Shown here: positions 6,538 through 43,168 of the stretch, piece by piece
Layout: each line of letters opens with the position of its first letter
How positions within the stretch are numbered: the stretch's first letter is position 1
Source: an uncultured Acidobacteriota bacterium
GTDB lineage: Bacteria > Acidobacteriota > Polarisedimenticolia > J045
NCBI GenBank assembly: GCA_963702425.1
Contig: CAVPCQ010000032.1
Location: 1-64,000 of the forward strand
DNA length: 64,000 bases
Reading direction: 5' to 3'
Translations under genes and position numbers: made by a program
Notes under the pieces: model-generated
The model's input: the letters and a program-made list of their open reading frames with translations, nothing else
Databases searched by the model: none
Told to the model about the DNA's origin: nothing

Positions 6538-6551
6538 CCACGGGGGTCCCC

Positions 6552-8021: not shown

Positions 8022-8110
8022 CGGAGCACGGCGTCGCTGAAGACGGAGGGCGTCGGCCGGCGAGCCCGGCGTAGTGGCGCGGTGGCGTGGCGGCGCGGTC
8101 CTGCAGGAAA

Positions 8111-8142
8111 GGAAAGGACCCGGCCGTAGCCGGGTCCTTTCC
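8111..8142 (-). terminator. intrinsic terminator hairpin
   Basis: 14-bp stem GGAAAGGACCCGGC / GCCGGGTCCTTTCC, loop TACG on the minus strand, then TTTCC; lies between convergent genes. Confidence 0.75.
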
Positions 8143-8191
8143 CCATCTCGCGAGCTTGGCTTCAGCCGGGCCGGCCTGTTCCTCTCCCCGT

Positions 8192-8560
8192 CTAGGGCTG
8201 GGAAGGAGAAACCTGGCAGGCCCGGTAGCAGTTCCACGCCACCGTGTTGGCGATGCTCTCGCAGCGACGGTAATCCTGGTTGGCGTTGTACCTCCTGATG
8301 TTGCCTTGGTTGATGCACTTCCCCTGGCACAAGAGGTCGGCCGGAGAGCAGCCGTTGATGCAGGCTTCCACCTGGGCGTCGACCTCGGCGAGGGTGGAGT
8401 TCAACGTATCCACGCAGGCCTGCCTTTCCACAAACCACTCGTCGGCACACGCCTGGATGCACTCCGCCTCGTCCGCGCTTGCCACCGGAATACCGAGCGC
8501 CGCCACCGCCATGAACAAGAGGGCGACGCGCACGAGCGTTGTCACAGGTTTCGCACGCAT
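8192..8560 (-). CDS. small secreted 10-Cys protein
   Basis: AAAGGAG RBS; signal peptide ending ASA; 10 cysteines; own terminator. Confidence 0.8.
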   Translation of the reverse strand: MRAKPVTTLVRVALLFMAVAALGIPVASADEAECIQACADEWFVERQACVDTLNSTLAEVDAQVEACINGCSPADLLCQGKCINQGNIRRYNANQDYRRCESIANTVAWNCYRACQVSPSQP

Positions 8561-9173
8561 GTATTCAACTCCTTTTCTCCAGGCGCAGAAGTGCTGGATT
8601 CGTTCGGGCTCCCGATCTTAGTCTGACTTTGATCCGTCCTTCGATCCTCTTGCGGATCGCTCAGCCGTTCGGGCAGCCGGCAGGCAGGAACAACGATGGG
8701 CTGCTCCTGCTCCACCGCGCCTGGCTCCAACGGCGATAAGAACCCCCCGCGCCTTTCCCCATGGGCGCGGCCTGGATGCCCCTGGAACCGCCCCTGGATG
8801 GCGGCCCGCAGGTTCGGGAAGGGCCGGGCAGCTCGGCCTCCCGGACGCGCGTGACCTCACATCCTGGCGGCGTGAATTGGACGCACATCCTCGCCTCCGC
8901 GCAAGCCAGAATGTGAGCCCCATTGGCCCTCCGGACTGCGACGTCCAACTAGTTGATTCTGATAGAGTTGCAGGTTTCTGCTGTGGGGAGCGCGGGTTAT
9001 CCTCCGCCACTTTCGCCCGGGCCGCCGCGCGCCGGCACCATGCACCCATCGGTCGACCGGCGCCGCGGTTCGTCGTATATGCACGGGCACGTCAGCGCCC
9101 GCGGGCTGGGCTCCCCCAGGGGCCGAGGTCCGCACCACCGTCACCGCGGGGGATACGGCCTCCGGGAGGGATC

Positions 9174-12100
9174 GTGCAACGGAGGTTCGGTCGTCGGTCC
9201 CTGGGCGTCATCGCAATCCGTTGGTCCGCAGCGTTGCTGTTGCTCGGCTCGACCGGCTCCGTGTTCGCGGGACCTCCCGCGCTCCGCAACCCCGACGTCC
9301 GCGTCGACACGGGTCGCGGCCTCTACGCGGCCTCCTCCGCCAGGAGGCCCCAGATTCTGCTCCAGGGCGACCGCGCCTACGCGGTCTACCTCGATCAGCG
9401 CTACTTCCTGGCGTTCGAGCCGTACATCAACGTGTCGGTCAATCAGGGCGGCACCTGGAACACGACTGACCGCCGGCTCAACAAGGACGGTGCCGGCGTG
9501 CCCGAGGGCGACACGGCCTACGTGTACCTCAGTAAGCCGGCCGACGCGTACGTCTTCGTTCTCTTCCTCAGCAACGACGGGCTGCAGTCGATCCCCTCGG
9601 TCGTCGCGTCGCCCGACGGTGGGGAGACCTGGAAGCCGCAGGTCGACCTTGCTTTCGCCGACTCCAACTCGCGTGAGGGTTTCTCCATCGCCTCGGCTGC
9701 CGGGGGCAAGGGTTATGTCCTGTGGAGCGACAACCGGCTCAACCTCAGCGGCGACAAGTCGGTCTGGCTCCGCCGGACCACCGACGGCGGTTCGACCTGG
9801 CTGACCGGACAGCAGGTCAACGTCAACGAAGCCAGCCCTCCGCCGTGCATCCTGGACAAGCACGAAGCGTCGACGCAGCCGGTCATGTGCACCGACGGGG
9901 GCAGCCGCCTTCTGGTCGCATGGCGCGACAAGCGAAGCGCAACCAATCCCTGCACCTACGTCACAGCACCGGGCCGGATCGTGCTGCGCTACTCGACCAA
10001 CGGCGGCACCACCTTCTTCCCTGCGTCCGAGACCCGGCTCGACCGCGCCGACGGGACTCCCGGCACCGAGTCCCAGCGTCCCGCGATCGCGTGTAACGCG
10101 AGCGAATTCGCCACGGTCGTCTGGGAGGATGCGCGGGCCGGCGCGACCAGCTGGAACATCTACGCCAACGTCTCGCAGGATGGGGGCGTGACGTGGCGCT
10201 CGGTCGACGTGCGCGTCAGCGGCGGCGGCCCCGCGGGCAAGCAGGCGCGGAATGCGAAGGTCGCCGTCGGCGCCGGCAACCCCGCGCCGATCTACGTCGC
10301 GTGGGAAGACAACCGCGATGGAGGAAAGGACCTCTACTTCTCGCACAGCGACGACGCAGGGCAGACCTGGGCGACGCCGCAGAGGCTGACCACCATCGCC
10401 AGCCCGACCGCGACGCCCCTCGAGAATTGGGACCTCTCCGCGGACGGAACGGCGGTCACCGTGGCCTGGAGCGCGGACAATCGCCCCGGACCACCGACGA
10501 CTCGGCGTTCGGACGTCTTCGAGGTTCACTCTACGGACGGCGGCGTGACCTTCCTGCCCGCCCAACGACTCGATCTCGGGACCGGGCCGAACGTCTTCGA
10601 CTCCGCAGAGCCGGACGGCGGCGCCGCGGGCACGGGGCACATCGCCATCTACGCCGACCTGCGCAACGACGTCGCCGCCGACCCGGACAGGCCGCGCCAC
10701 GACCTCTACAGCGGCGGCAGCGGGACGAGCGTCGACCCGAACGACGCCGATGCCGACGGACTTGCCCGGGCGAACGACAACTGCCCCGATTACCCGAACT
10801 TGGACCAGCGGGACCGTGATTCCGACGGGCGAGGGAACCTCTGCGATCCGCACCCGGACGATCCCGACAACGACCGCGACCTGGACGGGATCGCCTCCAA
10901 CCTGGACAACTGTCCGCTGAGGCACAATTCGAATCAGGACGACACCGACGCCGACGGGTGGGGCGACGCTTGCGACCTCTGCGCCGGGACGGCCGACCAG
11001 CTCCAGCGTGACCTCGACCGTGACGGGACGGGAGATGGCTGCGACGGCGACATCGACGGCGACGGCGTCGCCAACACAAGCGACGGCGACGACGACAGCG
11101 ACGGCTGGACCGACGCGTCCGAGAACTGCCCAACGGTCCCCAACCAGCGGCAGCAGGACGAGGATCACGACGGTCGGGGAGACGACTGTGATACCGACGA
11201 CCTGATCGTCTCGAACGTGAATATCCGGCCCGATGCGCTGCAGCCGCCGCGTATGGACTGGGACAAAGAGCCGGGCGCGTCGAGCTACAACGTGTACGTC
11301 GGCGTAGCCGATCGCCTCGCGACGGGCCACCCCGGGTTCTGCTACGCACCGTCCCTGAGTTTCTATGTCGCGCACCTGGCGGCGCAGCCCGACCCGGGTC
11401 AGATCCTCTGGTTCCTCGTCACGGCGAAGAACGGCAGCGGGACCGAGGGGAGCGCGGGAGCGCGCTCCGACGGCACGAAGCGGCCGAAACCGTCCCCCTG
11501 CGACGAGACGGCCGCTAGAGACTGGGATCTCGACGGCTTCATCAACGCGCGCGACAACTGCCGCTTCGATGCCAACGCCGACCAGACGGACCGGGACAAG
11601 GACGGCCCGGGGGACGTGTGCGACCGGTTCCCGGGCGATCCGCTCGACGACGAACCCGACCGGGACGGTGTCGGCTCCGACGTCGACAATTGTCCGTTCA
11701 TCGCCAATCGCGATCAGGCCGATGCCGATCTCGACAGGATCGGCGATTCCTGTGACGACTGCCCGACGGAATACGACCCGCTGCAGCGGGACTCCAGCGG
11801 CGACGGGATCGGCGATGCGTGTGATCCGGACAGCGACGGCGACGGCGTCCCGAACGCGATCGACGCGGACGACGACAACGACGGCGTCTCCGATGCGACC
11901 GACGACTGCGCGTTCACGGCCGACTCGTCGCAGTCCGACCAGGACCACGACGGGACCGGCGACGCCTGCGACGTCGACGACCGCGAGATCAACGACGTGG
12001 ACTTCTCACGCGGCAGCCGTGAGCGGATCGAGTGGACGCTGGAGCAGGGCGCAGCGTCGTACTCGGTCTACACGGACCTCGTTTCGAACATCAGGCCGGG

Positions 12101-12625: not shown

Positions 12626-13173
12626 CTGTTCGAGCCACGGAGAGCGGGGGACCCGAGGCACATCGCGTGGACCCCAACATCGGCGCAGCGCCCACCACGA
12701 GCGGCCTCTGAGGGGACCACGTCGCGGCGGAGGGGCGGTCCTGCACGCGGTCCGCGATGCGGCTAGGGTGGCCGCGCGTCGGACGCTGGGCCGCCGGGAG
12801 TTGCTTGGCGCCCGCCACAGCCGCGGGACGAGTGACAACCGTTCGTCTCAGCGCCGAGCAATGTGATGCACTTCCCGGGTCGCGGCTCTCCGCGCGTTAC
12901 ATACTCATATGTTCGATAACGGGCCGTGCGGCGTCCGGCCACGGTGATGGCAGGCGACCGCCTGTGGCTCAACGGTCAGTGACGAGGCCCCGGTCCGTTC
13001 TCCAAGGGCCGATGTCGGAAGCTCCTCACTGACCCTCATGGGCCACGCACGCCGATCACGCATGCAATTCACTGGCAGATCTTGCGCCATCGTCGTACTT
13101 GAAGAGGCCGCTGCACACTTGCCGCAGGGTGTCGCCCCGCGCGATCCGTCACTGAGATCCAGGAGGCTCGTCG

Positions 13174-13719
13174 ATGCTGCGTGTGGCCTTGGTGCTGGCG
13201 GTGCTCTGGGCCTTGTCGATCACCGGCGGCTCCGCACAGACGAGCGCCAGCTACCGGCTCACCGAGGCCACGCTCAACGCCGGAGGAAACCCCTCACAGG
13301 GCTCGATCCTTGCGTCCGCGAGCTTCCGGATCCGTCTCGACGCGATCGGCGAAGCGGCGCTGCCGGGCCCGCAGTCGAGCGGCTCGTTCCGCGCCGACGG
13401 CGGCTTCGTCGGCACGTTCCGCCCGCCGGAGGAAGTGCGGGGACTGCGCTTCACGGACCTCTCGACCCTCGCGTGGGACCCCGAGCGTTCGATCGGAACC
13501 TACGCCGTCTACCGCGACGGGCTCGAGGCATTGCCCGCTTCGGGCGGCGCCTGCCGCTCGTCGGGGTTCGCAGCGTCGACATTCGTCGACCGCTCCGCCC
13601 CCAAAGAAGGCCGCGGCTGGTTCTACCTCGTCACCGCGCGCAACCGGCTGCGGGAGGAGGGAACGCGGGGAACGCGCAGCGACGGCGTCCCCCGCCCCGC
13701 CACCGCACCGTGCCCGTGA
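13174..13719 (+). CDS. secreted hypothetical protein
   Basis: AGGAGG RBS; signal peptide; C-terminal WFYLVTARN..EGTRG..SDG..R..C domain shared with 9174..12281. Confidence 0.8.
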   Translation: MLRVALVLAVLWALSITGGSAQTSASYRLTEATLNAGGNPSQGSILASASFRIRLDAIGEAALPGPQSSGSFRADGGFVGTFRPPEEVRGLRFTDLSTLAWDPERSIGTYAVYRDGLEALPASGGACRSSGFAASTFVDRSAPKEGRGWFYLVTARNRLREEGTRGTRSDGVPRPATAPCP

Positions 13720-13748
13720 AAACCAACCGAGCGAAGAAGGAGTCCGGC

Positions 13749-15903
13749 ATGTTCCCCCGTACACGAACGGTTCTCGTCCTGCTCGCGCTCGCTTCATTCG
13801 CCGGCAGTGCGCAGGCGACCGACCCGACGCCCCTCGTCAACTACCAGGGCGTCCTGCGCGATGCCGCCGACGCGCCATTGACTGGCTCGTTCGACATGAC
13901 GTTCCGCTTCTACGATGCGCCGACCGGAGGGAGCGAGATCCTCGTCGACGCGCACCGTGCGGGCAGCGGCGGCGCGGTGGCCGTGCAGGGCGGGTTGTTC
14001 AACGTGCTGCTCGGCCAGGGAACCGTGTCGGACGGCAGTGGACCGGGCGTGTACACGTCGCTCGACCAGGTCTTCGCCGGCTACGCCGACGTGTGGCTCG
14101 CGGTGCAGGTCGGCGGGGAGACGCTCGCCCCGCGGACCCGCGTCGTGTCAGCGGCGTCGGCGCTCAACGCGTCGCGCCTCGGCGGCCGTCCAGCGACGGG
14201 CTTCCTCACGACCGACCCCGGCGTCGCGACGTCGGACGGCTCGCTCCGGCTGCTCGGCAACGGGACGTTGGGCATGGAGTCGTACGGCCAGCTCTGGGGC
14301 GGCTTCTTCCAGGACGCGGACCAGCCGGACACGTTCGCGTACGCGGGCTCCGGCCACACCGGGCTGTGGGGCTACGGGGCGGGACGGGGCGGGACCTTCT
14401 TCAACCAGACGACGGGGGCCACGGCGTATCTCGCCGGGGCCGAGGACGTGTCGAACCCGCGATATGGCATCGAGGCGCTCGGTACACAGGACGTCAATGG
14501 GGTCGGTGGCGGCGGTCTGTTCCGCGACCTCTCGACGACTTCGCGCGTCCTGCTCGCCTCGGGCTACTTCCCGCTCGTCGCCACGACCGGTGATGGCGCG
14601 ACGGCGGGTCTCTTCTCGAGCTACGGTGCGTCCGCGTACCTGGCGAGCGGGAACGGCGGGGTCGGCGGCGAGTGCTGCTCGGCCGGCGTCGACGGCCGCG
14701 CCTACGGCGCCGGCGGTTACTTCGAGGACACCCTCGACGGCGCGTGGTCCTACGCCGCCCGCGATACCTACAAGGTCTACGGCAACGGCGGCGTCTCGTT
14801 CGTGCAGAACCACCCGTACGAGAAGAACCGAGTGATCGTGTACGGCGCACCGGAGGGGGACGAGTTCGCGGTCTACACCCGCGGCAGCGCGCGCCTCGTC
14901 AAGGGCGTCGCCCGCGTGACGCTCGGCGCGACCTTCCCGCTCGTCGCCAACCCGGACATCGGGCTCACCGTGCAGCTCACGCCGCGCGGCGCGACGCGCG
15001 GGCTGTACGTCGAGTCCGTGTCGACGACGGAGACTCGTGGTCCGCGAGCAGGACGGCGGAAGCGGCGACGTCGCGTTCGACTTCGTCGTGATGGGCCTCC
15101 GGATCGGCTTCGAAGAGGTCAGCATCGTCCAACCCAAGCGGAACGAGGCGAAGATCCCGTCGATGCGCGCGCACCGCGAGATCTTCGCCACCGACCCGCT
15201 GCTGCGGCGCGACACGTCGCTCGAGCGATTCGGCGCGATGCGCACGGGAATGGCCGTGACGAGCGCGGGGCAGGACGCGCCGCTCGACCTGTCGCGCGCC
15301 AACGCGCTCAAGCTTGCGATCGGCGAGTTCGACCCGGCGCGCGATGCCGCCGACGTGCGGGGACTCGGCGCGCCCGAGCTGCCGGCGGCGCTACGCGCGC
15401 GGCGCGAGGGCCAGGCGGCCGCCGCGCCGTCGCCTGTCACGCCGGCCGCGGCGCTCGCCTCACGCGGCGCAGCGACCGCGGGCCGGACGTCGCCCGACGC
15501 GAGGCTGGAGACGCCGGCGCGCGAGGCGATCGCGTTGGCTCCTGCTCTGCCGCAGTTCCCCGTTACTGGCCGCGTCGAGCCGGGCGATCTGCTCGCGCTC
15601 GACCCGTGGCGTGCCGGTCACGTCGTTCGAACGACCGAAATCGCCGACCCGCGCGTTCTCGGCGTCGCGGCCGAAGCGGCCGAGGACGGATCTCCAGTCG
15701 GCGTGCTGCTCACCGGGATCGCAACGGTGAAGGTCGACGCGACGACGCTTCCGATCGAGCCGGGGATGCTGCTCGTCGCGGGGCCGCTCGCGGGCCACGC
15801 GATGGCGGCGACCAACGCGCCCGGCGGCACCGTGGTCGGCAAGGCGATCGACCGCCTGGATGGCGGGACGGGGACGATCCGGGTGCTGCTGCTGGCGCGC
15901 TGA
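13749..15903 (+). CDS. secreted beta-rich surface/fibre-like protein, frameshifted near 15033
   Basis: AAGGAG RBS; signal peptide; NYQGVLRD..FRFYDAPTGG N-domain; Gly-rich repeats; removing one A at about 15033 joins STTE to LVVREQDGG of ORF 15037..15903. Confidence 0.75.
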
Positions 15904-16453
15904 GCCGACACACGCGGTCCTCCTCTGGCCTGTCCTTCGTCACAGGCCCGAGCGCCTGATTCCTCGGCACCTTGCGCGCTACGCCGTACGACCGCCGGGC
16001 GGTCCACGGGAGCGTCTTGGCGGCGGGTGCGACCCTCGAGTGCTGCCTCGGGTTGCCGACCCCGGCGACTCCGGCGGCCCCGGCGCAGCGCCGCCCTGAG
16101 GACGCCGCGCTCCCGGACCTCGATCTCGCTTCGGTCGAGTGGGAGGACCGACTATCGGGGGACGCGGCACGTGTCCCGGGCGGTCGGGGTGAGTCGCTTC
16201 GCGGGTCTTCCTGAAGCGACCGGACGCGACCTTCGCCTTGTCACTTGTCCCGCGACCGTCGCGAGCGCAGACCCGGATCCCGTGGACTCGCGCCCGGTCT
16301 CTGCCCTTGCCCCATCGCGGAGCGCGGGTAGGACCGCTTGTCGCCAAATCCACGGCAGCATCGCGTGATTGCAATTCCTCGGATACTGCGCTATACAGCA
16401 CCTCGTCTGCGACGATCGTGAGAAGCGCCAGCAGAGGAGCGTCTCAGCGGTCT

Positions 16454-17536
16454 ATGGAGAAGGTGATCGTTACGGCTGACGAGATATCGCTCGCTCAGCC
16501 GGAGGCGCAGTTTGACTCCAGCGCGGAGAAGCGGACGGCGTCCCCTGTACCGATGTGGACGAAGCTGATCCTCGCACCGCTAGTTCTTGCGCTCCCGCTG
16601 CTAGCCATCGTAACTGCGGTCCTGCGGACGGCAATTCGCAACCAGCCGCCACGCACCCGCCAAGCGATCACTTCGTACCTCTGCTCACTGTTGGTCGCGA
16701 GCGCGCTGCTGACATCGGCATCCACGGTCATTCTGCTTTTCATGCAGCCGAGCCGTTTTGTCATGAGCTCCGGACTGACCGATCTTGACGAGTGCGCTTC
16801 ATTCCCGCATCTGCCGAAGGAACACCCACTGACCGCATCCCAGATCGGCGAGATCTTCAAGCCCTTGGTCGTCGTCATCTCGCCGGAGAACAGCCTCTGG
16901 TTCGGCCGGGGCAGTGAGCCTTCGGACGCGCTCGGCTCCGGACTCCTGCTCTACGCCGGCGTCGACGGCTACCTGTTCGCGACGGCCAAGCACGTCATCG
17001 ACGCCTATTCGAAGGATGGAACCGGCGTGATGCTCCACACAGTGAACGGTGCGTGGGCCCGTGGAGTCGTCGTGGGGCGCCATCAGACAGCCGACGCCGC
17101 GCTGGTCTGGATGCGCCGTGTGATGGGCTCCGGACGATTCTGCCAGCCGGTCGCTTCCGACGAAGAAGTCGCGGTCGGCGACCCGGTCTTCGTCATCGGC
17201 CACCCCGTGGGACTCACGTTCGCGCTCTCAACAGGCATCGTGTCGCGGCTCGCGGACCCGCAGGTGCTCCAGATCAGCGCACCGATCAGCCCGGGCAACA
17301 GCGGCGGACCAGTCTATGACGACAGCGGGAGATTGGTGGGGATCGTCACCTCCATGTTCGACACTCGGCTCGAGTCCCACGCCCAGAATCTGAATTTCGC
17401 GTTGCGAGCGGATGTGCTGACCCAGCCGGCTGGCTGGAGGTTTACGGGCAACGGCGTGGACTCGTATGAGCAGTTCCTCAGTGAATGCCTCCCGCAGCAG
17501 AACAGCGCGGATGTTTCCGCAGGGGACCCCGGATAG
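16454..17536 (+). CDS. membrane-anchored trypsin-like (HtrA/S1C-like) serine protease
   Basis: two TM helices; TAKHV (His), ADAAL (Asp), ISPGNSGGP (Ser). Confidence 0.88.
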   Translation: MEKVIVTADEISLAQPEAQFDSSAEKRTASPVPMWTKLILAPLVLALPLLAIVTAVLRTAIRNQPPRTRQAITSYLCSLLVASALLTSASTVILLFMQPSRFVMSSGLTDLDECASFPHLPKEHPLTASQIGEIFKPLVVVISPENSLWFGRGSEPSDALGSGLLLYAGVDGYLFATAKHVIDAYSKDGTGVMLHTVNGAWARGVVVGRHQTADAALVWMRRVMGSGRFCQPVASDEEVAVGDPVFVIGHPVGLTFALSTGIVSRLADPQVLQISAPISPGNSGGPVYDDSGRLVGIVTSMFDTRLESHAQNLNFALRADVLTQPAGWRFTGNGVDSYEQFLSECLPQQNSADVSAGDPG

Positions 17537-17538
17537 CC

Positions 17539-17808
17539 ATGGCCATCATCAATGTCTTCGTTTACGATTCGACGGAGAACAAACGGGTTCCCGTTGAGTT
17601 GCCCGACGATGCCCCGGTCAACAAGATCATTGCCGTGTTGATCGACAAGCTGTTGCTGCCGAAGAATGGGCCCGACGGGGCACCGTTAAGCTACAAGTTC
17701 CATCATAAGAATTCCGGGCGCCAGGTCCAGGACGGACAGACACTCGCCCAGGCCGGCGTCCAGAGCGGCGACATCCTCCGATTGCAGCCCGAAATCACGG
17801 CGGGTTGA
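17539..17808 (+). CDS. ubiquitin-like protein (YukD/EsaB-like beta-grasp)
   Basis: 89 aa; TLAQAGVQSGDILRL ubiquitin-fold signature; ends EITAG with terminal Gly; directly upstream of E1. Confidence 0.88.
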   Translation: MAIINVFVYDSTENKRVPVELPDDAPVNKIIAVLIDKLLLPKNGPDGAPLSYKFHHKNSGRQVQDGQTLAQAGVQSGDILRLQPEITAG

Positions 17809-18987
17809 TTGAACGCGACGCGCGACCAGGACGTCGGTTCCCCGGACGACAGGTTCGGTCGTCTGCGCCTGATCCCGTGGTGGGACCAGGAGAAGCTCTC
17901 GAGCGCGCGCGTGCTGGTTGTCGGTTGCGGTGCGCTTGGCAACGAACTGCTCAAGAACCTGGCCCTCCTGGGAGTCGGTCGCTTCGTCATTGCTGATCTC
18001 GATACCGTCGAGCTGTCAAACCTCTCGCGCAGCGTGCTCTTCCGGACGGTCGACCTCGGCCGTGGAAAGGCCGAGGCCGCCGCTGGCGGCATCCAACAGC
18101 TCCTCCCCGGCGCGCGCGTGCAGCCCCTGCGAGCTGACATCGTGCACCAACTCGGGTTGGGTCTGTTCTACTGGGCGGACGTCGTTTTCGCCGGCGTTGA
18201 TAACCGCGAAGCGCGCCTCTGGATCAACCGCTCGGCCTGGAAGATGAACCGGCCGTGGGTAGACGGCGCGATCGAAGGCATCGATGGTGTGGTCCGCGTC
18301 TTTCTTCCCGGCCGCCCGCCCTGCTACGAGTGCACGATGGGCGAAATCGACTGGGCCATCCTGCAGAGGCGTATGTCCTGCAACCTCCTATTGCACGGAG
18401 ACCAGGAGCAGGGAAAGGTTCCAACCACGCCGACCATCGCGTCCATCATCGCGGGCATGCAGGTACAGGAAGCCGTCAAGCTGCTGCACGGCCTGCCCAC
18501 GCTTGCGGGCAAAGGTTTCGTGTTCGACGGCCTCAATCACAGCTCCTATGTAGTGGAATACACTGAGAATCTGGCTTGCCAGAGCCACTACACGCTCCAC
18601 ACTGTCCACGAACTGCCCCAGGCCTCACGGGAACTGACACTTTCCGAACTCCTGAAGATCGCGCGCGCGGATCTGGGCGAGCATGCCGCAATCGAATTCA
18701 GCCGTGACATCATCCGTCGCCTCGTCTGTCCCAGGTGCGGTGACGAGGAACTGCCGTTCGCGCCCGTCGGGAGCATTCCGTATGCCCGCGGTCACTGCCC
18801 TCAAGACGGAGCCATGCGCATCGTGGAAACCGTCCACGCCTACACCGGCCAGGAGGACTTCGGCACACGTAGGCTCGACGAGCTTGGCCTGCCGCTCTAC
18901 GACGTCTTTGTCGCCCGCTGCGGCGCGAGGGAGATCGGGTACATCCCCGCCGGCGACGCCCCTCTCGTGCTCGGCGCGGTGATGTGA
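17809..18987 (+). CDS. E1-like ubiquitin-activating enzyme (ThiF family)
   Basis: VLVVGCGALG, DLDTVELSNLSR, VDNREAR; CYEC zinc site; candidate catalytic Cys in RRMSC; C-terminal CPRC..CPQD. Confidence 0.92.
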   Translation: MNATRDQDVGSPDDRFGRLRLIPWWDQEKLSSARVLVVGCGALGNELLKNLALLGVGRFVIADLDTVELSNLSRSVLFRTVDLGRGKAEAAAGGIQQLLPGARVQPLRADIVHQLGLGLFYWADVVFAGVDNREARLWINRSAWKMNRPWVDGAIEGIDGVVRVFLPGRPPCYECTMGEIDWAILQRRMSCNLLLHGDQEQGKVPTTPTIASIIAGMQVQEAVKLLHGLPTLAGKGFVFDGLNHSSYVVEYTENLACQSHYTLHTVHELPQASRELTLSELLKIARADLGEHAAIEFSRDIIRRLVCPRCGDEELPFAPVGSIPYARGHCPQDGAMRIVETVHAYTGQEDFGTRRLDELGLPLYDVFVARCGAREIGYIPAGDAPLVLGAVM

Positions 18988-19772
18988 TGAGTAGGAAGGT
19001 CCCACCCGGGCGCGCCCGGGCACCAGAGGTGACACTCTGCGTCGACGTCCTGCGCAAGATCCGCCGGCACGCACGAGCGTCGCCGACGACGGAGGTCTGC
19101 GGCGTACTGATCGGAACCACAAGTGACGACGGGGTGGTCGTCGAAGAGTGCATCCAGGGCGTGAACGCCGCGCAAGGGAGCGCGCACGTCACATTCACGC
19201 AGGAGGCATGGGAGCATATCTACAGGATCAAGGACCGCGACTACCCCCATCTGCGGATAGTCGGCTGGTATCATTCGCACCCGGGCTTTGGCGTATTTCT
19301 CTCCGACCAGGACGTCTTCATCCAGAAGAACTTCTTTTCCGCCCCAACGCAGATTGCGTGGGTCTACGACCCGCACTCGGATGCTGAAGGCTGTTTCGGG
19401 TACGTCGATGGCGAGATCAAGCGGCTGCGGGACATGCGTGTCCGCGATGACGGGATGCGGGTCTCGACCGACGAGTCGGAGTTTGAGGACCCCGGAGACG
19501 CCGTCCGGCGTCTCGCGATAGACGAGCCTCCAGTCCACCGCCGGAAGGACCTACTCTTCACGGTGCTCTCCTATGTGGCCGCTGTGTTGCTGGGAGCGGC
19601 GCTAGCTCTTTACTTTCTGGGGCCGATGACAGTCGTTGTGCGGGTCCCGAAAGAACAGCATGAAGAGAGGATGCGTTCGCGTCCCGCGGATTCTGAAAAG
19701 CATGCCCCCGCCCGGAAGCCTGTCCCGGAACAGCGCACGGAGGGCACCAGACCCGGCGGAGATCGCAAATGA
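18984..19772 (+). CDS. JAB/MPN+ metalloisopeptidase with TM helix
   Basis: EVCG and GWYHSHPGFGVFLSDQD JAMM motif; hydrophobic helix near the C-terminus. Confidence 0.92.
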   Translation: MMSRKVPPGRARAPEVTLCVDVLRKIRRHARASPTTEVCGVLIGTTSDDGVVVEECIQGVNAAQGSAHVTFTQEAWEHIYRIKDRDYPHLRIVGWYHSHPGFGVFLSDQDVFIQKNFFSAPTQIAWVYDPHSDAEGCFGYVDGEIKRLRDMRVRDDGMRVSTDESEFEDPGDAVRRLAIDEPPVHRRKDLLFTVLSYVAAVLLGAALALYFLGPMTVVVRVPKEQHEERMRSRPADSEKHAPARKPVPEQRTEGTRPGGDRK

Positions 19773-20830
19773 GCGACGAACAGGAGGTCATCAAGATCAC
19801 TGCCGAGGAGCTGGCGGAGATCACGCCGGAAGCGCCCTCGAGCGTGGTTGCGCCGGTCTTCTCCCCTGCGGACCCAAAGGCGAAACACTACGGCAACATC
19901 AACGCCGAACCGGAATTGTCTGCCGTATCCGAGCGGCCCGGGAGCATCCTCTTGCAGGGCTGGTTCTACCTGGGTGTAGCGGGACTGCTGGGGGCCGCCA
20001 TCGGCTGGGGCGTGTGCGAACCGAGCTTCATGGACGGCCCGCAAGGGCACGCATGGGGCAATACCTGGATGATCCCCGCCCTGGTGACGATGATGTGCCT
20101 CGGATTCGCCATTGCCGAGAGCGTCGTCGAAAGGTCGATCCAGAAGGCGCTTGTCCGCTGTGCTCTGGCGGTTCCGCTGGGCGTGATCCTCGGCTTCTTT
20201 TTCGAAGTATTCGCGAATGTGATCTTCAGTATTGGGCTGGAGATTGCTTTTCAACTGGGAGTTCGCAGCGAGCACAACCCGATCTTCTGGATTGCGCGCG
20301 GACTCGCATGGACGGAAATCGGGGTTGTCGGAGGCCTTACCTACGGCGTAATTGGCCGATCAATGAAGAAGGCGAAGTACGGCATCCTGGGTGGCATGCT
20401 CGGGGCCGGCCTGGGCGGCATCATTTTCGATCCCATTGCCCTCGCCCTCAGCGGAGCCGCTCCCAGCAGGGCGGTCGGCTTTGGACTCCTTGGTCTGGCC
20501 ACCGGCGTCGCCATGGGCCTCGTGGAGAGCGCTCTGAAGGACCGCTGGCTGTACGTGTTCGGCGGCCCGCTCGCCGGCAAGCAGTTCATCCTGTACAAGA
20601 ACGTCACGACGATCGGAAGCCGCCAGCAGTGCGACATCTATCTTTTTAAGGACTCAAGCATCCTACCCGAGCACGCGTTCCTCGAAAGTCGCGGAAGCCG
20701 CATCCAGCTTCGCGCTGTCGGGCCGGTGCATCTGTCCGGGCAGCCTGTCCATCTGCGGGTCCTTCAGAATGGCGACCTCATCCAGATCGGCCGCTACTCG
20801 TTCCGCTACCAGGAGAAGCACCGGACGTGA
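19769..20830 (+). CDS. polytopic membrane protein with C-terminal FHA domain
   Basis: several Gly-rich TM helices; GPLAGKQFIL..TTIGS..CDI..H..LQNGDLIQIG FHA pattern; ATGA overlap with JAB gene. Confidence 0.85.
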   Translation: MSDEQEVIKITAEELAEITPEAPSSVVAPVFSPADPKAKHYGNINAEPELSAVSERPGSILLQGWFYLGVAGLLGAAIGWGVCEPSFMDGPQGHAWGNTWMIPALVTMMCLGFAIAESVVERSIQKALVRCALAVPLGVILGFFFEVFANVIFSIGLEIAFQLGVRSEHNPIFWIARGLAWTEIGVVGGLTYGVIGRSMKKAKYGILGGMLGAGLGGIIFDPIALALSGAAPSRAVGFGLLGLATGVAMGLVESALKDRWLYVFGGPLAGKQFILYKNVTTIGSRQQCDIYLFKDSSILPEHAFLESRGSRIQLRAVGPVHLSGQPVHLRVLQNGDLIQIGRYSFRYQEKHRT

Positions 20831-21456
20831 GCGATCCTCTCTGTCCCTACTGTCGCACGGAGATCGACCCGTCAGAGTGCGAGACGCATTACTGCCCTTC
20901 CTGCGGCGCGCCGCACCACCCCGACTGCTTCGAGGATAACCGCGGTTGTACCGTCTTCGGCTGTAGGTCTGCGCCGGTGGAGGAACCCAAGCTGCACATC
21001 TCCGCCGGTGAATTAGGGGCCTCCGACACACGGGCCGCGGTGCTTTCGGCGTCAGGCGCAGACGTTGCGCCCCCTCCCCCTCCGCCTCCCCCGCCGCCGG
21101 CACCGCGAAGTGGCGTTGCGGAACCTCCGCTGGGTTCGGGCCCCATCCCGCCGCCGGTTCCCGTCCCTGAGAAGGAGCTCTTCAGCAGCCTGGGATTCCG
21201 CGCGGCGGCGCCTAGTGCTTCGGCTCCGGCCCCAGCTCCGGATGCCAAGGACCGATTGACGTATGTTATGCTCGGGATCTTCTTGGGACCGTTCGGTGCT
21301 CACAGTTTTTACGCCGGCTTCATCAGCAGAGGGCTGGCGCAGCTGGCGATCACGGTCCTCACTCTCGGGTTCGGCGCGCTGATCGCCTGGGTCTGGGCCG
21401 TCGTGGAGGTTTGCACGATCGAGAAGGACAGTCGCGGCATGCAAATGAGGACATAG
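20827..21456 (+). CDS. prokaryotic RING finger (Prok-RING_1-like) plus TM2/NINE domain; putative E3
   Basis: CPYC..CPSC-GAPHHPDC..C-TVFG-C; poly-Pro linker; LGIFLGPFGAHSFYAG TM2 motif; GTGA overlap. Confidence 0.85.
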   Translation: MSDPLCPYCRTEIDPSECETHYCPSCGAPHHPDCFEDNRGCTVFGCRSAPVEEPKLHISAGELGASDTRAAVLSASGADVAPPPPPPPPPPAPRSGVAEPPLGSGPIPPPVPVPEKELFSSLGFRAAAPSASAPAPAPDAKDRLTYVMLGIFLGPFGAHSFYAGFISRGLAQLAITVLTLGFGALIAWVWAVVEVCTIEKDSRGMQMRT

Positions 21457-21465
21457 GAGACGCAG

Positions 21466-22098
21466 ATGAACTACTTCGTCAAACGTGGTGAGGACCGATT
21501 CGGCCCCTACTCCCTGGCTGACCTTCAGCATTACGTTCAAACCGGCAGCGTTGCGCTCGAGGACCTCGCCCAGAGCGAAGGCATGACCGATTGGGTCCCG
21601 GTGTCCCAGGTGATCGGCGATATTCCCGTTCCGGCCACCGTCGAAGGACCGGGAACAGTCGCTGCACCGGTGGCGGAGCCGAGCGTCCCCCTGCCGCCCA
21701 ATCTCAACTGGTCGATCGTCCTGCTGCTTACATTCGTAACCTGTGGTCTGTTCAGCATCGTCTGGGGGTTCATTCTGGCGACCTGGGCGAAGAAATTGGA
21801 TCGTGACAACCGCTCGGTCGTTTTCATGTTGATCTACGCCGTACTCTCCATTCTGGCGGTCGGCATTGAGGTGAGCGGGGAGCAGCCCGGACTCAGCCTG
21901 TTCGCGCGACTGGGCGGCGCCGTCTGCTACCTGGTCTCGGTGTTCGGGATCAGGTCTTCGATGGAAAGGTACTATACCAGTACAGAAGATATAGGCCTGA
22001 GCCTGAACGGTACCATGACGTTCTTCTTCAACATTTTCTACTTCCAATACCACGTCAATCGCCTCCACCGCTGGAAGCAGACAGGTGTCCTGTCGTAG
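21466..22098 (+). CDS. GYF_2 domain membrane protein (DUF4234-like TM region)
   Basis: YFVKRGEDRFGPYS..EGMTDWVPV GYF_2 pattern; LLTFVTCGLF and YFQYHVN TM region. Confidence 0.8.
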   Translation: MNYFVKRGEDRFGPYSLADLQHYVQTGSVALEDLAQSEGMTDWVPVSQVIGDIPVPATVEGPGTVAAPVAEPSVPLPPNLNWSIVLLLTFVTCGLFSIVWGFILATWAKKLDRDNRSVVFMLIYAVLSILAVGIEVSGEQPGLSLFARLGGAVCYLVSVFGIRSSMERYYTSTEDIGLSLNGTMTFFFNIFYFQYHVNRLHRWKQTGVLS

Positions 22099-22188
22099 TC
22101 CGATGAATCGGTTCGGACAGGTGCGGGCGCACTCCTGCCTGGGAATCGTTCCAGGTCGCCTCGGACTCATGTCCGATCGGGAACGCTG

Positions 22189-22791
22189 ATGATCTCGCCA
22201 CGTGTTCGTCGTCTGCAGCACGATTTTGAAATCCTGCGCCGACGTCTCGACAATTGGCCGCTGATCAAGATCACCGGCACTGCCGGGCTGCCGCCCGAGA
22301 TGTACCGTTTCACATATTACGTTCGCGGCCTTTATGTCGATCCTGGTGGCGACATTCTGGAGCGCGAGACTCACGTGCTCGAAGTGAATCTCTCACTCGG
22401 ATACCCGCGCCGTGCGCCCCAGTGCAGGATGTTGACCCCCGTCTTTCATCCCAACTTCGATGAAGCCACGGTCTGTGTAGGGGACTTCTGGGCCGCCTCG
22501 GAAGGTCTCGATGATCTGGTGATACGAATCGGCTACATGATCGCTTACCAGGAGTACAACACCAAGAGCCCTCTGAACGGCCTGGCGGCAAGATGGGCTG
22601 CGCAGAACATCCATCTCCTGCCGGTCGATGCCCGGACCATCGCGCCGCCGCAGCCCGAGCCGCAGAGTTTCGCGGACGCTGACCAGACCGAGCCGGAGAG
22701 CTCCGCACAGCAGGCCGCGAAGCCGGCCCCGGAAACCCCGGACTCACGTCCCTCGACCGCTCCCTGGTCAGAGAAGATCGTTATCCGCTAG
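22189..22791 (+). CDS. E2 ubiquitin-conjugating enzyme
   Basis: YPRRAP..TPVFHPNF..VC (HPN plus catalytic Cys); SPLNGLAA. Confidence 0.92.
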   Translation: MISPRVRRLQHDFEILRRRLDNWPLIKITGTAGLPPEMYRFTYYVRGLYVDPGGDILERETHVLEVNLSLGYPRRAPQCRMLTPVFHPNFDEATVCVGDFWAASEGLDDLVIRIGYMIAYQEYNTKSPLNGLAARWAAQNIHLLPVDARTIAPPQPEPQSFADADQTEPESSAQQAAKPAPETPDSRPSTAPWSEKIVIR

Positions 22792-26042: not shown

Positions 26043-27902
26043 CTACCCAGCATCGCGACGCCGCAGCTCGGATGCCATCGCCTCCCAACGCCCGCGCTCC
26101 GCGGCGCCGGCCTTCGCGGCTTCGGCCGATCCGATCGCTCTTTCCAGGCCCTCCGTGAGCTCACGGCGCCGCCCGTCGTTCGGCAGTTCCTCATGGAGAG
26201 CACGGAGCACCTCGATCGACTCGGCGCGGCTCGCGATCGCCTCGTCGAGGGCACCTTCGGAGGCCTGGACGGCCGCCAGCTGCTCGAGCGCTGAAGCGGT
26301 CCATCGACGGTACTCGGGCTCCTCCGGATCGTTGGTCGCTGCTTCCCGAACCAGCGACAGCGCGGCTTCCGCATACGGGCGCGCGCGATCCGGCGCAGCG
26401 CCGGCGTGGTAGTAGTGCGCGAGATTGCCAGCGGCCCAGTAGGCCATGCCCACGTCGTCGATCGAAAGCTCCGCGGCGATCAGCGGCCCCAGCAGACGGC
26501 AAACGGCGCGGCATTCGGTGATCGCCCGCAGGTGGAGTTCCTGTCTCGCCGGGCCCGGTGGAGGGGGGCTCCCGAAGACGCGGAACATCTCGACTTGCGC
26601 CCGGCCGAAGCGAAGCGTCGCGACCCACCGTCGCTCTTCGGGTGACAGCTCGTCCTCGGTCTTGTCGACGAGCGCATGAACGGCGCGTCGTCTCTCGGCG
26701 CGTTCCGACGCCTCGAGGTCGGCCGTGCGCGGGTAGAGCCCGAGGATCGCCTCGCGCTCGATCTGGCTCTCGCGCTGGCCGAGGTAGGACCCCTTCAGGA
26801 TCGCCCGTTCGGTCGGGCTGTGCGCACTGCGGAAGATCGTCACGGCGAGGCCGGACTCGAAGGCCGCGACGATGCGCACGTCAAGGTCGTTCTCTTCAGG
26901 GGTCACGACCTGCGCAGCGTCGCGCTCCTGCCCGACGAGCGAAATCCCGAACGTCGCTCCCTTCCTAATGAGCGTCGCGAGCGGCGGGATCTCCAACTTC
27001 TGTTCGAGGTGCGGAACGGTCGGTCCTCCTTGATACGACGACACCGCGCCCTGCGGCTGCCAGCTCTCCCCGCTGAACTCGAAGTCGAATGTCGCGGGCA
27101 GGTCGCGCAGATCCGTTCCGTCGTGCTGTGCGGAAAGCCGTTCCACGCGACCGAACCACTGGAAGCGTCCGTCGACGCGTTTCCCGTCGGATCGGATCAA
27201 GTCATGGTCGAGCTCTTCGACTCCCATCCAGGCGGGCCAGGTGTGTTCCTCGCGGTAATGCGCGAACAGGAACCACATCGGCTGCGAGAACAGGCGGTCG
27301 AACTCGAGGCCGATCGCAAGGACCTTGCCCCGCGGCAGGGCCATGTGGCGGAACGAGATCTGGATTCTCCGGATCGGTTCCTCGCGCACCTCGCCGAGGG
27401 ACCCCGCAAGTTCCGGAAGGACCTGGGCGGCCTCCATCTCGCTCTGCCGGGCGGCGAGCGCCTCTTGCAGGGCCGCGTCGAGCTCGACGTCACCGAGGGC
27501 CTCCTTTCCCACGATGGCGCGCACGAGCCGGGCACTCACGTCGGGCGAGGCGATACCGGCCGTGGCGTCGAGCATCACCAGTCCCAGCAGTTCGTCCGGT
27601 GGCCGGCAGGGCCGAAGCAGGACCGGCACGATGCGCAGTCCTCGTTTGGCGGCCTCTTCCTTTCCGCGGGCAATCTCCTCGGCGACCCAGCGCGAGGCGA
27701 CCGACGAGGGAGAGAGCAGCAAGCACAGCACGTCGGCCCCTGCGATGCCGCCGCCGAGTTCGCGCTTCAGATCCGCCGAGACCCGGATGTCGAAGACATC
27801 GAGCCACACGGTGCATCCCGAGCGGGCCAGAATGTTCCGTACCGCTCGGGCCTCCATCCTGTCCGCCGAGGAGTACGAGATGAACACGGTGAGATCTGCC
27901 AT
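26043..27902 (-). CDS. TIR domain protein with C-terminal TPR-like helices
   Basis: VFISYSSAD..VWLD..LLSPSSVASRWVAEEI TIR_2 pattern with catalytic-position Glu. Confidence 0.85.
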   Translation of the reverse strand: MADLTVFISYSSADRMEARAVRNILARSGCTVWLDVFDIRVSADLKRELGGGIAGADVLCLLLSPSSVASRWVAEEIARGKEEAAKRGLRIVPVLLRPCRPPDELLGLVMLDATAGIASPDVSARLVRAIVGKEALGDVELDAALQEALAARQSEMEAAQVLPELAGSLGEVREEPIRRIQISFRHMALPRGKVLAIGLEFDRLFSQPMWFLFAHYREEHTWPAWMGVEELDHDLIRSDGKRVDGRFQWFGRVERLSAQHDGTDLRDLPATFDFEFSGESWQPQGAVSSYQGGPTVPHLEQKLEIPPLATLIRKGATFGISLVGQERDAAQVVTPEENDLDVRIVAAFESGLAVTIFRSAHSPTERAILKGSYLGQRESQIEREAILGLYPRTADLEASERAERRRAVHALVDKTEDELSPEERRWVATLRFGRAQVEMFRVFGSPPPPGPARQELHLRAITECRAVCRLLGPLIAAELSIDDVGMAYWAAGNLAHYYHAGAAPDRARPYAEAALSLVREAATNDPEEPEYRRWTASALEQLAAVQASEGALDEAIASRAESIEVLRALHEELPNDGRRRELTEGLERAIGSAEAAKAGAAERGRWEAMASELRRRDAG

Positions 27903-31843: not shown

Positions 31844-32009
31844 GCTGTCTCCAGAGACACGGGCCGTGGCGCTTCTGCAGGTTCCTGGCCGCTTCGAGCG
31901 GTTGCTCCGAAACACCTCGGCCCATGCCCGTCGTGTTGGAGATGGTCGAGCCTGCCACCACCTTGCCGGGAGCAGACGGGCGGTCTGCCCCGCGTTCCAC
32001 CGCGCCGCA

Positions 32010-32019
32010 AGGGTAGCAC
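32010..32019 (-). promoter_or_regulatory. extended -10 motif GTGCTACCCT
   Basis: TGnTACCCT; same 10-mer on the plus strand at 36871, 40226 and 54535, upstream of other units. Confidence 0.45.
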
Positions 32020-32187
32020 CGGGCACGGGCGGGAGGCATGCAGGACTCGAGCTCGCGTCCCCGGGGGCGGTGCGGCCGACATGGAGTCGCGAGATTTCCT
32101 TTGACTCGGAAAGTCGTCAGGGGATAGCCTGCACGGCGCAGGTTCCTCGTTCTCCGGAACAGGGACCTGACCGCGCAGGAGGTCCGC

Positions 32188-43148: not shown

Positions 43149-43168
43149 GGCCCTCCGGGGAGGACGAC

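Follow-up and report, generated by a model that had tools for sequence, protein, structure and literature searches.

In a 64,000-nucleotide stretch of DNA from an uncultured Acidobacteriota bacterium (assembly GCA_963702425.1, contig CAVPCQ010000032.1; the whole stretch is hereafter called the window), we describe a cassette of eight genes at positions 16454-22791 of the forward strand, which probably forms one operon for complete conjugation and deconjugation of a ubiquitin-like modifier (Ubl) of the archaeal/eukaryotic type, operating at the inner membrane face. The eight open reading frames (ORFs), all of them intact and running in one direction, code for a Ubl, E1-like and E2 enzymes, a RING protein as candidate E3, a JAB/JAMM metallopeptidase, a trypsin-like protease and two further membrane proteins with FHA and GYF domains, respectively. 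The chemistry of conjugation is the best-supported part of this proposal, as judged from the homology of the enzymes to a reconstituted archaeal system and from the invariance of the residues predicted to carry it out. The same order of the eight genes is found in 70 of 71 related loci, as detailed below, which puts the association far above chance. The genes, with the family matches of their products, are as follows:

16454-17536 (+): membrane-anchored trypsin-like (HtrA/DegS-like) serine protease, 360 amino acids (Pfam Trypsin_2, 4.5e-21)
17539-17808 (+): Ubl of the YukD-like beta-grasp type, 89 amino acids (Pfam YukD, 3.1e-13)
17809-18987 (+): E1-like activating enzyme, 392 amino acids (Pfam ThiF, 7.2e-53)
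18984-19772 (+): Rpn11-like JAB/JAMM metallopeptidase, 262 amino acids (Pfam JAB, 1e-15; Prok-JAB, 4.4e-12)
19769-20830 (+): six-helix membrane protein with a C-terminal FHA domain, 353 amino acids (FHA, 3.5e-6; Yop-YscD_cpl, 3.3e-10)
20827-21456 (+): candidate E3 with a RING finger and a TM2 anchor, 209 amino acids (TM2, 1.5e-8; Prok-RING_1, 1.5e-4)
21466-22098 (+): GYF-domain membrane protein, 210 amino acids (Pfam GYF_2, 1e-9)
22189-22791 (+): E2 conjugating enzyme, 200 amino acids (Pfam UQ_con, 1.5e-7)

The starts of the protease (16454) and of the Ubl (17539) were chosen from alignments of orthologues. With these, the protease and Ubl genes are separated by 2 nucleotides, the Ubl and E1 genes abut, the E1/JAB, JAB/FHA-protein and FHA-protein/RING pairs each overlap by 4 nucleotides, and gaps of 9 and 90 nucleotides precede the GYF and E2 genes. 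A prior account of this DNA, made without database searches (the sequence-only reading), had described eight co-oriented, mostly abutting or overlapping genes, and the ORFs indeed lie where it placed them, with junctions ranging from -4 to +90 nucleotides. Its gene list and its claim of intact motifs likewise hold, being borne out by the Pfam domains listed above and by residues that are invariant across 19-22 orthologues. None of the eight products reaches the cut-off of an NCBIfam model; PADLOC returned generic E1-E2 and JAB matches and a weak BilD match alone, with none for the Ubl, E2, RING, FHA or GYF products. A scan of the GC-rich window DNA for promoters and terminators gave nothing useful.

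The conjugation and deconjugation components

The Ubl terminates in ...LRLQPEITAG directly before its stop codon, and this whole tail, with Ala as the penultimate residue and Gly89 as the last, is invariant in all 20 aligned orthologues. The same 20 sequences agree completely in 59 of the 89 columns and are 81-88% identical to the window's Ubl, and 2-6 extra residues follow the final Gly in six of them; across phyla the identity holds at 80-88%. Beyond YukD, the Pfam families Rad60-SLD and ubiquitin match the domain weakly, its sole NCBIfam match is a weak one to EccD, and a profile of the Ubl aligns with the Caldiarchaeum 'ubiquitin-like protein' chains at E values of only about 0.3-0.6. The family is a large one, for a profile search of 1.84 billion representatives returned 878 clusters at E<=1e-3. 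Some relatives of the Ubl (P0118, P0114, P0105, P0031 and P0054) display tandem Ubls, C-terminal DUF4190 membrane domains and zinc ribbons, and in the 1052-residue P0118 the Ubl relative is flanked by CHAT protease and HINT domains.

Besides a ThiF adenylation domain, the E1 has a crossover-loop cysteine (Cys190), a metal site of Cys and His residues and, at its C-terminus, a domain of some 130 residues that bears a CxxC...C motif. Across 19 sequences the motifs GxGxxGNE, SNLSR, DNRE, C172xxC175 and RMSC190N are invariant, and the position of Cys190 suggests that it would be the catalytic residue of the enzyme. Its best relatives in the PDB are active adenylation domains, namely those of UBA7, UBA1 and UBA3 (2.9e-27 to 1e-23), with ThiF (4e-22) and MoeB (1.4e-19) behind them. 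When the C-terminal domain alone was used in a sequence search of the PDB no match was obtained, and its identity as a ubiquitin-fold domain is thus unconfirmed.

The E2 has a UBC core (residues 1-150) followed by a variable acidic/proline tail that ends in 'PWSEKIVIR'. It scores 31.5 bits against the UQ_con model, whose cut-off is 27 bits, and finds its best PDB matches in human UBE2C (1.7e-6), UBE2A/B and UBE2N; in the alignment with UBE2C the HPN motif and the cysteine are in register. The residues H87-P88-N89, C96 and C79 are invariant in all 22 sequences. The candidate E3 starts with a C4HC3 finger (residues 6-46), a pattern described as typical of prokaryotic RINGs in PMC11354881, and continues through a proline-rich linker into a C-terminal two-helix anchor of the TM2 type; all 21 sequences compared keep its eight metal ligands, C6, C9, C23, C26, H30/H31, C34, C41 and C46. 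The JAB peptidase, which has one C-terminal transmembrane helix (approximately residues 190-208 by hydropathy) followed by a variable tail, retains E37, H96-S-H98, S106 and D109 in all 20 sequences compared, and its best PDB match is the Rpn11-like protein of Caldiarchaeum (6fjv, 3.2e-12), followed by the yeast and human Rpn11.

The membrane subunits

Hydrophobic helices were recovered in five of the eight products by a hydropathy scan, and AlphaFold2 models six in the FHA protein, in agreement with the five transmembrane products of the sequence-only reading. The RING, GYF and JAB domains are N-terminal in their respective proteins, from which we infer that the ligase, reader and peptidase domains face the cytoplasm. 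The GYF protein carries its GYF domain ahead of 3-4 hydrophobic helices; the protein also matches DUF4234 weakly and below its cut-off. The protease begins with the motif 'MEKVIVT..DE' and has two transmembrane helices (approximately residues 38-56 and 79-97), both of which are strong in 19 of 19 orthologues, and its catalytic His, Asp and GNSGG Ser do not vary among the 19 sequences. Pfam detects no PDZ domain in it, and the NCBIfam models for HtrA, DegS, DegP and DegQ score it at 30-64 bits against cut-offs of 408-800 bits.

The FHA protein is modelled by AlphaFold2 (full-length pLDDT, the model's per-residue confidence, of 79) with a disordered acidic N-terminus containing 'VIKITAEEL', six long helices and then the FHA domain; the even number of helices, six, would place both ends of the protein on one side of the membrane. 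Modelled by itself, the helical part attains a pLDDT of 84.7 and a pTM of 0.79. Foldseek returned no match for this six-helix domain at E<=0.001, and its best VIA Z scores, which are 6.9 for CyuA, 6.4 for NDUFA11, 5.5 for Hrd1 and 5.3 for TIM23, lie below the chance level for helical bundles; no significant likeness to Hrd1, derlin or other known translocation folds was thus found. A comparison with a protein atlas was uninformative, the best score being 0.82.

The FHA domain itself can be assigned with certainty, at the level of its AlphaFold2 model, to the GarA/OdhI-like fold (Foldseek 1.9e-8 with a TM-score of 0.89 to GarA; VIA Z 17.9, 1.0 Å over 93 residues). In FHA domains that bind phosphothreonine, a conserved Arg (in the GR motif) and a Ser (in the SxxH motif) contact the phosphate. 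In the alignment with GarA, GR is replaced by GS and SRRH by LPEH in the cassette FHA, and the pattern in 20 orthologues is G-s-x-Q ... x-P-x-H-A. Since both the Arg and the Ser that contact phosphothreonine are missing, the domain probably binds in a phosphate-independent manner, and its ligand would be either the terminal strand motif described in the next section or the Ubl. A precedent for the latter kind of contact is offered by type VIIb secretion, where YukD is described as binding, without being conjugated, to the FHA domains that a membrane ATPase carries (bioRxiv 10.1101/2025.01.24.634720).

A shared terminal motif and informative fusions

Three otherwise distinct proteins of the cassette share a short strand-like motif at one of their termini. 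In the protease it is N-terminal and takes the form M-[ED]-K-[IV]-[IV]-I-[ST]..[DE]-[LV]; in the FHA protein it is again N-terminal, as I-K-I-T-L-[ED]-D-L; and at the C-terminus of the E2 it appears as DPW-x-[EQD]-[KR]-I-V-I in 14 of 22 sequences and as [IL]-[ST]-I-[TS]-P-D-[DE]-L in another 4 of 22. Counted with a strict pattern over 92 pooled loci (the assembly of this set is described below), the motif is present at 52 of 65 protease N-termini, 68 of 75 N-termini of the FHA protein and 65 of 90 E2 C-termini, most of the misses at the last being near-variants such as KKIVIS; because the sequences are related, these counts measure conservation and not independent recurrence. As controls, eleven other termini gave 0-1 hits among 73-90 sequences each, and shuffled 25-residue windows gave 30 in 6205. 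The motif is also kept in the divergent locus L024 of the window's own phylum, where in the protease it lies C-terminal to a zinc ribbon, a location implying that this region of the protease should be cytoplasmic.

Gene fusions in L022, a locus from a genome titled Spartobacteria, provide a second set of contextual links. Here one membrane protein combines a RING (38.7 bits) with a GYF domain (39.4 bits), and an FHA domain (52.4 bits) is fused to the C-terminus of the E2. These fusions argue that the RING works with the GYF domain, and the E2 with the FHA domain.

Conservation, distribution and origin

A first scan with peptide patterns from the E2 yielded 22 loci, mostly in genomes titled Acidobacteriota, with two from Verrucomicrobiota. 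All eight genes occur in order in 19 of the 22, and the other three end at a contig edge; L022 shows weak, partial protease and GYF matches, its protease gene being a 123-residue stub devoid of a protease domain. In a second scan, an E2 alignment matched 259 stretches in a collection with one genome per species, 218 of which encode a relative, and the best 80 of these 218 were kept. Among these 80, nearly all are titled as Terriglobia-type Acidobacteriota, with single loci titled Dongiaceae, Eisenbacteria and Limnocylindrales. Pooling the two scans and removing seven loci on repeated contigs left 92 distinct loci.

Where at least 6.7 kb lie upstream of the E2, all eight genes are present in order in 70 of 71 loci, the exception being L096 with an E2 alone. 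Among the 21 shorter loci, three are complete, 15 are cut by the contig with their remaining genes in order, and two (L035 and L104) have an E2 without its expected neighbours; L092 retains all eight genes with the RING gene inverted downstream of the E2. The sequence-only reading would, by its own account, have been refuted had the membrane genes failed to accompany the core elsewhere; they do accompany it, in 70 of the 71 loci. The median identity to the window's proteins is highest for the Ubl (84%), followed by the E2 (66%), E1 (63%), FHA protein (58%), JAB (50%), GYF protein (45%), protease (44%) and RING protein (40%). The flanking genes are unconserved, with no flank family found in more than four loci. 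In L097 and L110 the E2 frame as extended runs to 718-728 residues, which is either a fusion or an artefact of the extension. The cassette is thus compact and sharply bounded, with at least 218 matched stretches in the one-genome-per-species collection, and it has a cultured carrier in Edaphobacter aggregans DSM 19364 (L021).

Its phyletic distribution is patchy. The E2 is single-copy in the window's genome, and a close orthologue was found in none of 60 relatives (among them 4 from its genus and a further 18 from its family), three of which have E2s at 29-32% identity. A sample of 400 genomes from the window's phylum contains some E2 relative in 24, the best being only 42-51% identical, and in the class that holds Edaphobacter aggregans a close E2 (E<=1e-40) occurs in 8 of 400 other genomes. 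RpoB places the genome, among the matches listed, with the Acidobacteriota on a long branch outside Terriglobia. The operon has a GC content of 0.62-0.64 as against 0.69-0.73 alongside, and a GC content at third codon positions (GC3) of 0.72-0.79 as against 0.85-0.93 in the neighbouring genes. Given this patchy spread together with the deviant GC and GC3, the evidence points to an accessory module that was probably gained in this genome by lateral transfer.

No mobile vehicle was apparent: a tRNA gene is missing from the window, flanking repeats of any significance are lacking, and no integrase lies at the borders of the cassette. Likewise, the cassette was found in none of 43 candidate stretches from viral contigs, and phage records gave no match. 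A search of plasmids recovered one distant E2 only, at 40587-41045 of NC_019754.1 of Crinalium epipsammum PCC 9333 (32% identical); the host of this plasmid is a cyanobacterium, and the gene is annotated as a ubiquitin-conjugating enzyme E2.

Beyond the eight-gene form, several related loci display other gene complements. L024, whose E2 and Ubl are respectively 51% and 53% identical to those of the window and whose Ubl ends in ...LPEITAG, keeps the Ubl, E1, transmembrane JAB, transmembrane FHA protein, two RING proteins with transmembrane segments (one of them at 40.0 bits on Prok-RING_1), protease and E2 but has no GYF gene; its protease has the architecture zinc ribbon-transmembrane-trypsin. 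The E2 of this locus (8938-9741 on the reverse strand of L024) has a C-terminal extension with at least a dozen CxxC cysteine pairs, which are possibly zinc fingers. L026-L028 represent minimal sets with an E1, a YukD-type Ubl, an E2 and a JAB only. L029, also from the window's phylum, has at positions 5477-9991 a distant operon in which genes for a Prok-RING_1 protein and an E1 occur with one for a YukD-like Ubl that bears a TIR domain at its N-terminus; the E2 of this operon may itself begin with a Ubl-like stretch (a weak Rad60-SLD match). Finally, at 5367-11354 of L031 a 713-residue AAA ATPase with proteasomal-ATPase OB domains adjoins the Ubl, E2 and E1, which hints at an unfoldase-coupled version of such systems.

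A proposed mechanism and the observations that oppose it

Putting these observations together, we propose that the E1 would adenylate Gly89 of the Ubl and take the Ubl onto Cys190, from which it would move to Cys96 of the soluble E2 as a thioester. The membrane-anchored C4HC3 RING protein, as the E3, would draw the E2~Ubl to the membrane and promote transfer to lysines of membrane-proximal targets. The tail-anchored JAB would strip the Ubl off again, and in those relatives whose Ubls have C-terminal extensions it would also trim the precursors. Genomic context further suggests parts for the remaining components: the GYF and six-helix FHA proteins might be ligase adaptor, scaffold or reader subunits; the terminal strand motif ([ED]-K-I-V-I-[ST] or I-K-I-T-L-E-D-L) might hold the parts of the assembly together, with the phosphate-independent FHA domain perhaps binding either this motif or the Ubl; and the membrane-tethered trypsin-like protease might be the coupled effector or regulator.

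Several observations weigh against this reconstruction. The Ubl ends in Ala-Gly instead of Gly-Gly, and the family that it matches best, YukD, is one whose known members are unconjugated. The RING of the window scores 22.1 bits against Prok-RING_1, under the cut-off of 29.1 bits, which its homologues in L024 (40.0 bits) and L022 surpass. The tract of prolines in the RING linker, to which the GYF domain might bind, is absent in L001 despite the presence of a GYF gene there, and is present in L024, which has none. There is no kinase, unfoldase or proteasome gene among the eight products of the cassette; the genome has one match to PF00227, which is uninformative as to a 20S proteasome as the family also matches the E. 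coli and B. subtilis controls. The relatedness of the sequences behind the motif counts, mentioned above, belongs here too.

To these must be added the topology of the protease. Its two helices are joined by a loop in which 3-5 Lys/Arg and 0-1 Asp/Glu residues occur in 19 of 19 orthologues, and the flank after the second helix is acidic; this Lys/Arg-rich loop mildly favours a periplasmic location for the protease domain, which would keep it away from the Ubl. The N-terminal motif that the protease has in common with the tail of the cytoplasmic E2, however, argues for the opposite topology. Of the coupling to a protease that the sequence-only reading had proposed, the gene linkage stands, but it is linkage only, and whether the protease domain is cytoplasmic or periplasmic is ambiguous.

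Genomic surroundings

The window has further genes of the conflict type at 26043-27902 (-), 43073-45127 (+), 52872-53603 (-), 54315-55583 (+), 51581-52780 (-) and 30314-32026 (-). This set includes a TIR_2 protein, a STAND protein with DUF4062/TIR, NB-ARC and TPR domains, a prokaryotic YEATS protein with a TIR domain, a CAP12/Pycsar-type TIR protein, a patatin phospholipase and an extracellular contractile injection system (eCIS) core protein, such that the DNA surrounding the cassette looks like a conflict island.

Three more genes for trypsin-like peptidases are found at 32188-33102 (+), 40305-41468 (+) and 49824-50612 (-). Two overlapping ORFs at 35110-35769 (-) and 35750-37450 (-) each match a part of the subtilase profile: the upstream one contains positions 1-89 of Peptidase_S8 at its C-terminal end and the downstream one positions 126-288, which looks like one gene split by a frameshift or by an error of assembly. 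Just upstream of the cassette, at 13038-15959 (+), long ORFs overlap in several frames, rendering gene calling ambiguous; one of them (15037-15903) gives a borderline match to Phage_cement_2, at 23.9 bits against a cut-off of 24.

Biological role and alternative explanations

The roles that the sequence-only reading put forward (envelope quality control, signalling or defence) are guesses. With respect to the biological role, we regard an accessory conflict or defence module as quite possible, if short of an even chance, and the turnover or quality control of membrane proteins as also possible at somewhat lower odds; that the role is something else altogether appears unlikely, without being negligible. 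The first of these takes the form of an anti-phage or conflict system, which we entertain tentatively: infection would trigger Ubl conjugation at the membrane, and either proteins of the invader would be tagged, as by Bil, or a membrane or protease effector would be switched on, leading to abortive infection. It concerns the role and leaves the chemistry proposed above untouched. It has precedents in that some bacterial ubiquitination-related pathways are described as acting in antiphage immunity (PMC11601603; for context also PMC11601596), and in that the prokaryotic set of RING, E1, JAB and Ubl-E2 components is placed within conflict systems in PMC7159879.

The distribution of the cassette is in keeping with such a role, being patchy and cross-phylum (a close E2 in 8 of 400 other genomes of one class and in none of 60 relatives of this genome, and outliers titled Verrucomicrobiia, Spartobacteria, Dongiaceae, Eisenbacteria and Limnocylindrales), and so is the deviant GC and GC3 of the operon. 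The context offers further parallels: the window is rich in TIR (four), patatin, STAND NTPase and eCIS genes, a TIR gene lies directly 3' of the E2 in L018, and among the Ubl relatives one is joined to a TIR domain (L029) and another stands between CHAT and HINT domains (P0118). On the other hand, the flanks of the 22 loci of the first scan (130 ORFs) are mostly housekeeping, with defence-like genes only in L018 (TIR) and L021 (Fic, TOTE primase and integrase), and no flank family recurs in more than four loci. Moreover, PADLOC offers generic matches only, the cassette was not found on the viral contigs (0 of 43 candidate stretches) or in the phage records, with one plasmid carrying a distant E2 (32%), and the conservation of the Ubl across phyla is unlike that of fast-evolving defence parts.

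A less likely alternative is membrane proteostasis as an analogue of endoplasmic reticulum-associated degradation (ERAD), in which the transmembrane subunits would recognise damaged or surplus proteins, the E2 and RING would tag them, the serine protease would receive them and the JAB would recycle the tag. The architecture agrees with this idea, in that membrane proteins make up five of the eight products and have their ligase, reader and peptidase domains at ends inferred to be cytoplasmic, and so does the high conservation of the Ubl, which befits a tag read by many partners. The protease also stays with the core even in the rearranged L024, and several loci lie next to genes for membrane housekeeping, SPFH/Band 7 and MacB/FtsX among them. 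However, occurrence in about 2% of the sampled genomes of one class would be odd for general proteostasis, the protease of L022 is a 123-residue stub without a protease domain, and the protease domain may be periplasmic. Further, the six-helix domain shows no significant likeness to Hrd1, derlin or translocation folds (best VIA Z 6.9; Hrd1 5.5).

A bolder version of this idea, which we consider improbable, would be a self-contained membrane ubiquitin-protease machine independent of the proteasome, wherein a RING/GYF/FHA receptor complex assembled through the shared docking strand (EKIVIS or IKITLEDL) would attach the almost invariant Ubl to proteins at the membrane, the phosphate-blind FHA domain would read the Ubl and the tethered protease would destroy the tagged proteins. 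If true, it would be the bacterial counterpart of ERAD, with tag, ligase, reader and protease coupled without a proteasome.

The next alternative departs from the chemistry itself: the Ubl might be an unconjugated structural subunit in the style of YukD that holds FHA-containing membrane proteins, with the E1, E2 and JAB having other functions or having lost theirs. YukD is the top Pfam family of the Ubl and EccD its sole, if weak, NCBIfam match; YukD is described as binding the FHA domain of a membrane ATPase without conjugation (bioRxiv 10.1101/2025.01.24.634720), and the cassette likewise pairs a YukD-like Ubl with a membrane FHA protein. Nevertheless, we hold this to be very improbable given the invariant terminal Gly and ...LRLQPEITAG tail with removable extensions in some relatives, the invariance of all the adenylation, Cys, HPN and JAMM residues, the absence of an FtsK/EssC ATPase or WXG100 gene from the cassette, and the fact that the nearest solved relatives of the enzymes are true ubiquitin enzymes. 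The idea that the E1 and Ubl make up a sulfur-carrier or cofactor-biosynthesis pair like ThiF/ThiS or MoeB/MoaD, next to genes with which they have nothing to do, can be set aside as extremely improbable, for although ThiF and MoeB models match the E1 (structures at 4e-22 and 1.4e-19), their NCBIfam scores are far under the cut-offs, the Ubl is of neither the ThiS nor the MoaD type, the E1-Ubl pair is always linked to an E2, RING and JAB, and the cassette has no thiamine or molybdopterin genes.

We therefore return to a membrane-associated conjugation and deconjugation operon as the probable identity of the cassette. Understood thus, it could show how a membrane-anchored E3, a deubiquitinase and putative readers work, which targets the Ubl has and whether tagging is tied to a dedicated protease.

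Comparison with known systems

The closest characterised relative of the cassette is the archaeal E1/E2/RING/Rpn11 system of Caldiarchaeum, to the exclusion of Bil, Bub and the cyclic oligonucleotide-based antiphage signalling systems (CBASS). The cascade of Caldiarchaeum subterraneum, with Ub, E1, E2, a small RING and Rpn11, is reported as reconstituted in vitro (PMC5654768, PMC6043591), and its Rpn11 as trimming a pro-Ub (PMC5654768). The cassette resembles it in its five core parts, with a compact single-chain E1, a UBC-type E2 with a Cys and a small putative RING, and in that some of the modifiers are precursors with a short C-terminal extension. It differs in its bacterial host, in its YukD-like Ubl that ends in Ala-Gly and in the membrane anchoring of the RING and JAB; the trypsin-like protease, the six-helix FHA protein and the GYF protein have no Caldiarchaeum counterpart. 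The statement of the sequence-only reading that the characterised systems lack a RING E3 is accordingly correct for the bacterial Bil, Bub and CBASS but not for this archaeal cascade (PMC5654768).

Among bacterial systems, complete RING-bearing operons, including ones from Acidobacteria, are described from comparative genomics (PMC4197634, PMC5654768), as the sequence-only reading had stated, and the same accounts place related operons in Actinobacteria, Planctomycetes and Acidobacteria. The cassette very probably belongs to this predicted family of bacterial Ubl/E1/E2/RING/JAB operons. Earlier work by Burroughs, Iyer and Aravind in 2011 (Mol Biosyst 7:2261) reportedly proposed that YukD-like Ubls are conjugated and defined the Prok-RING families. 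Published accounts of a true bacterial E1-E2-RING cascade are uneven, as one survey states that no bacterial genome it analysed has a complete Ub toolkit (PMC4327156), as against the operons reported in PMC4197634 and PMC5654768. Our literature searches recovered no bench test of a bacterial RING-bearing system, and no description of the eight-gene membrane architecture, the terminal motif, the fusions or the phosphate-blind FHA domain, although a prior description in the 2011 work is possible.

The better-studied bacterial systems show partial parallels. Bil, as described in PMC11601603, also has separate Ubl, E2, JAB and E1 genes and thioester chemistry is expected of both, but unlike the cassette it is described there with no RING and no membrane subunits; of the PADLOC models for Bil, BilD matches part of the E1 (1.3e-7), and BilA, BilB and BilC do not match. 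Bub shares with the cassette the presence of a Ubl, E1, E2 and serine protease in one operon, and its account in PMC11601596 describes oxyester intermediates (on an E1 Tyr and an E2 Ser), proteins that are fused to one another and a Ser-His protease of the DUF6527 type. In contrast to this, the cassette has an E2 Cys after the HPN motif, unfused genes and a trypsin-fold protease with a His-Asp-Ser triad, and there is no match to DUF6527. The Cap2/Cap3 proteins of type II CBASS are homologues of the E1, E2 and JAB, with the PADLOC E1-E2 matches being confined to E1 residues of approximately 15-178 (the adenylation part); the cassette differs in its separate E1 and E2, its free Ubl and RING, and in having no CD-NTase or effector gene.

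Two further systems have parts in common with the accessory components. The YukD/YukB pair of type VIIb secretion combines, like the cassette, a YukD-family Ubl with an FHA domain on a membrane protein and is, in the account cited above, the precedent for a phosphate-independent contact of this kind. Unlike that system, the cassette is without a secretion ATPase, pseudokinase or WXG100 protein (a search of its eight products, confined to the cassette, gave no FtsK/EssC ATPase and no WXG100), and its Ubl has an invariant Gly along with an E1, E2 and JAB of its own. With HtrA, DegS and DegP the protease shares the trypsin-fold triad, but neither the PDZ domain nor a family-level score.

In light of these comparisons, the existence of the cassette will be unsurprising to a specialist, yet it is worth testing. 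The core was already known, and what is new is the terminal motif, the RING+GYF and E2+FHA fusions, the FHA domain without its phosphothreonine contacts and the unusually conserved Ubl. The first three of these features furnish specific and cheap hypotheses for how such a system, related in its chemistry to that of Caldiarchaeum, might be assembled on a bacterial membrane.

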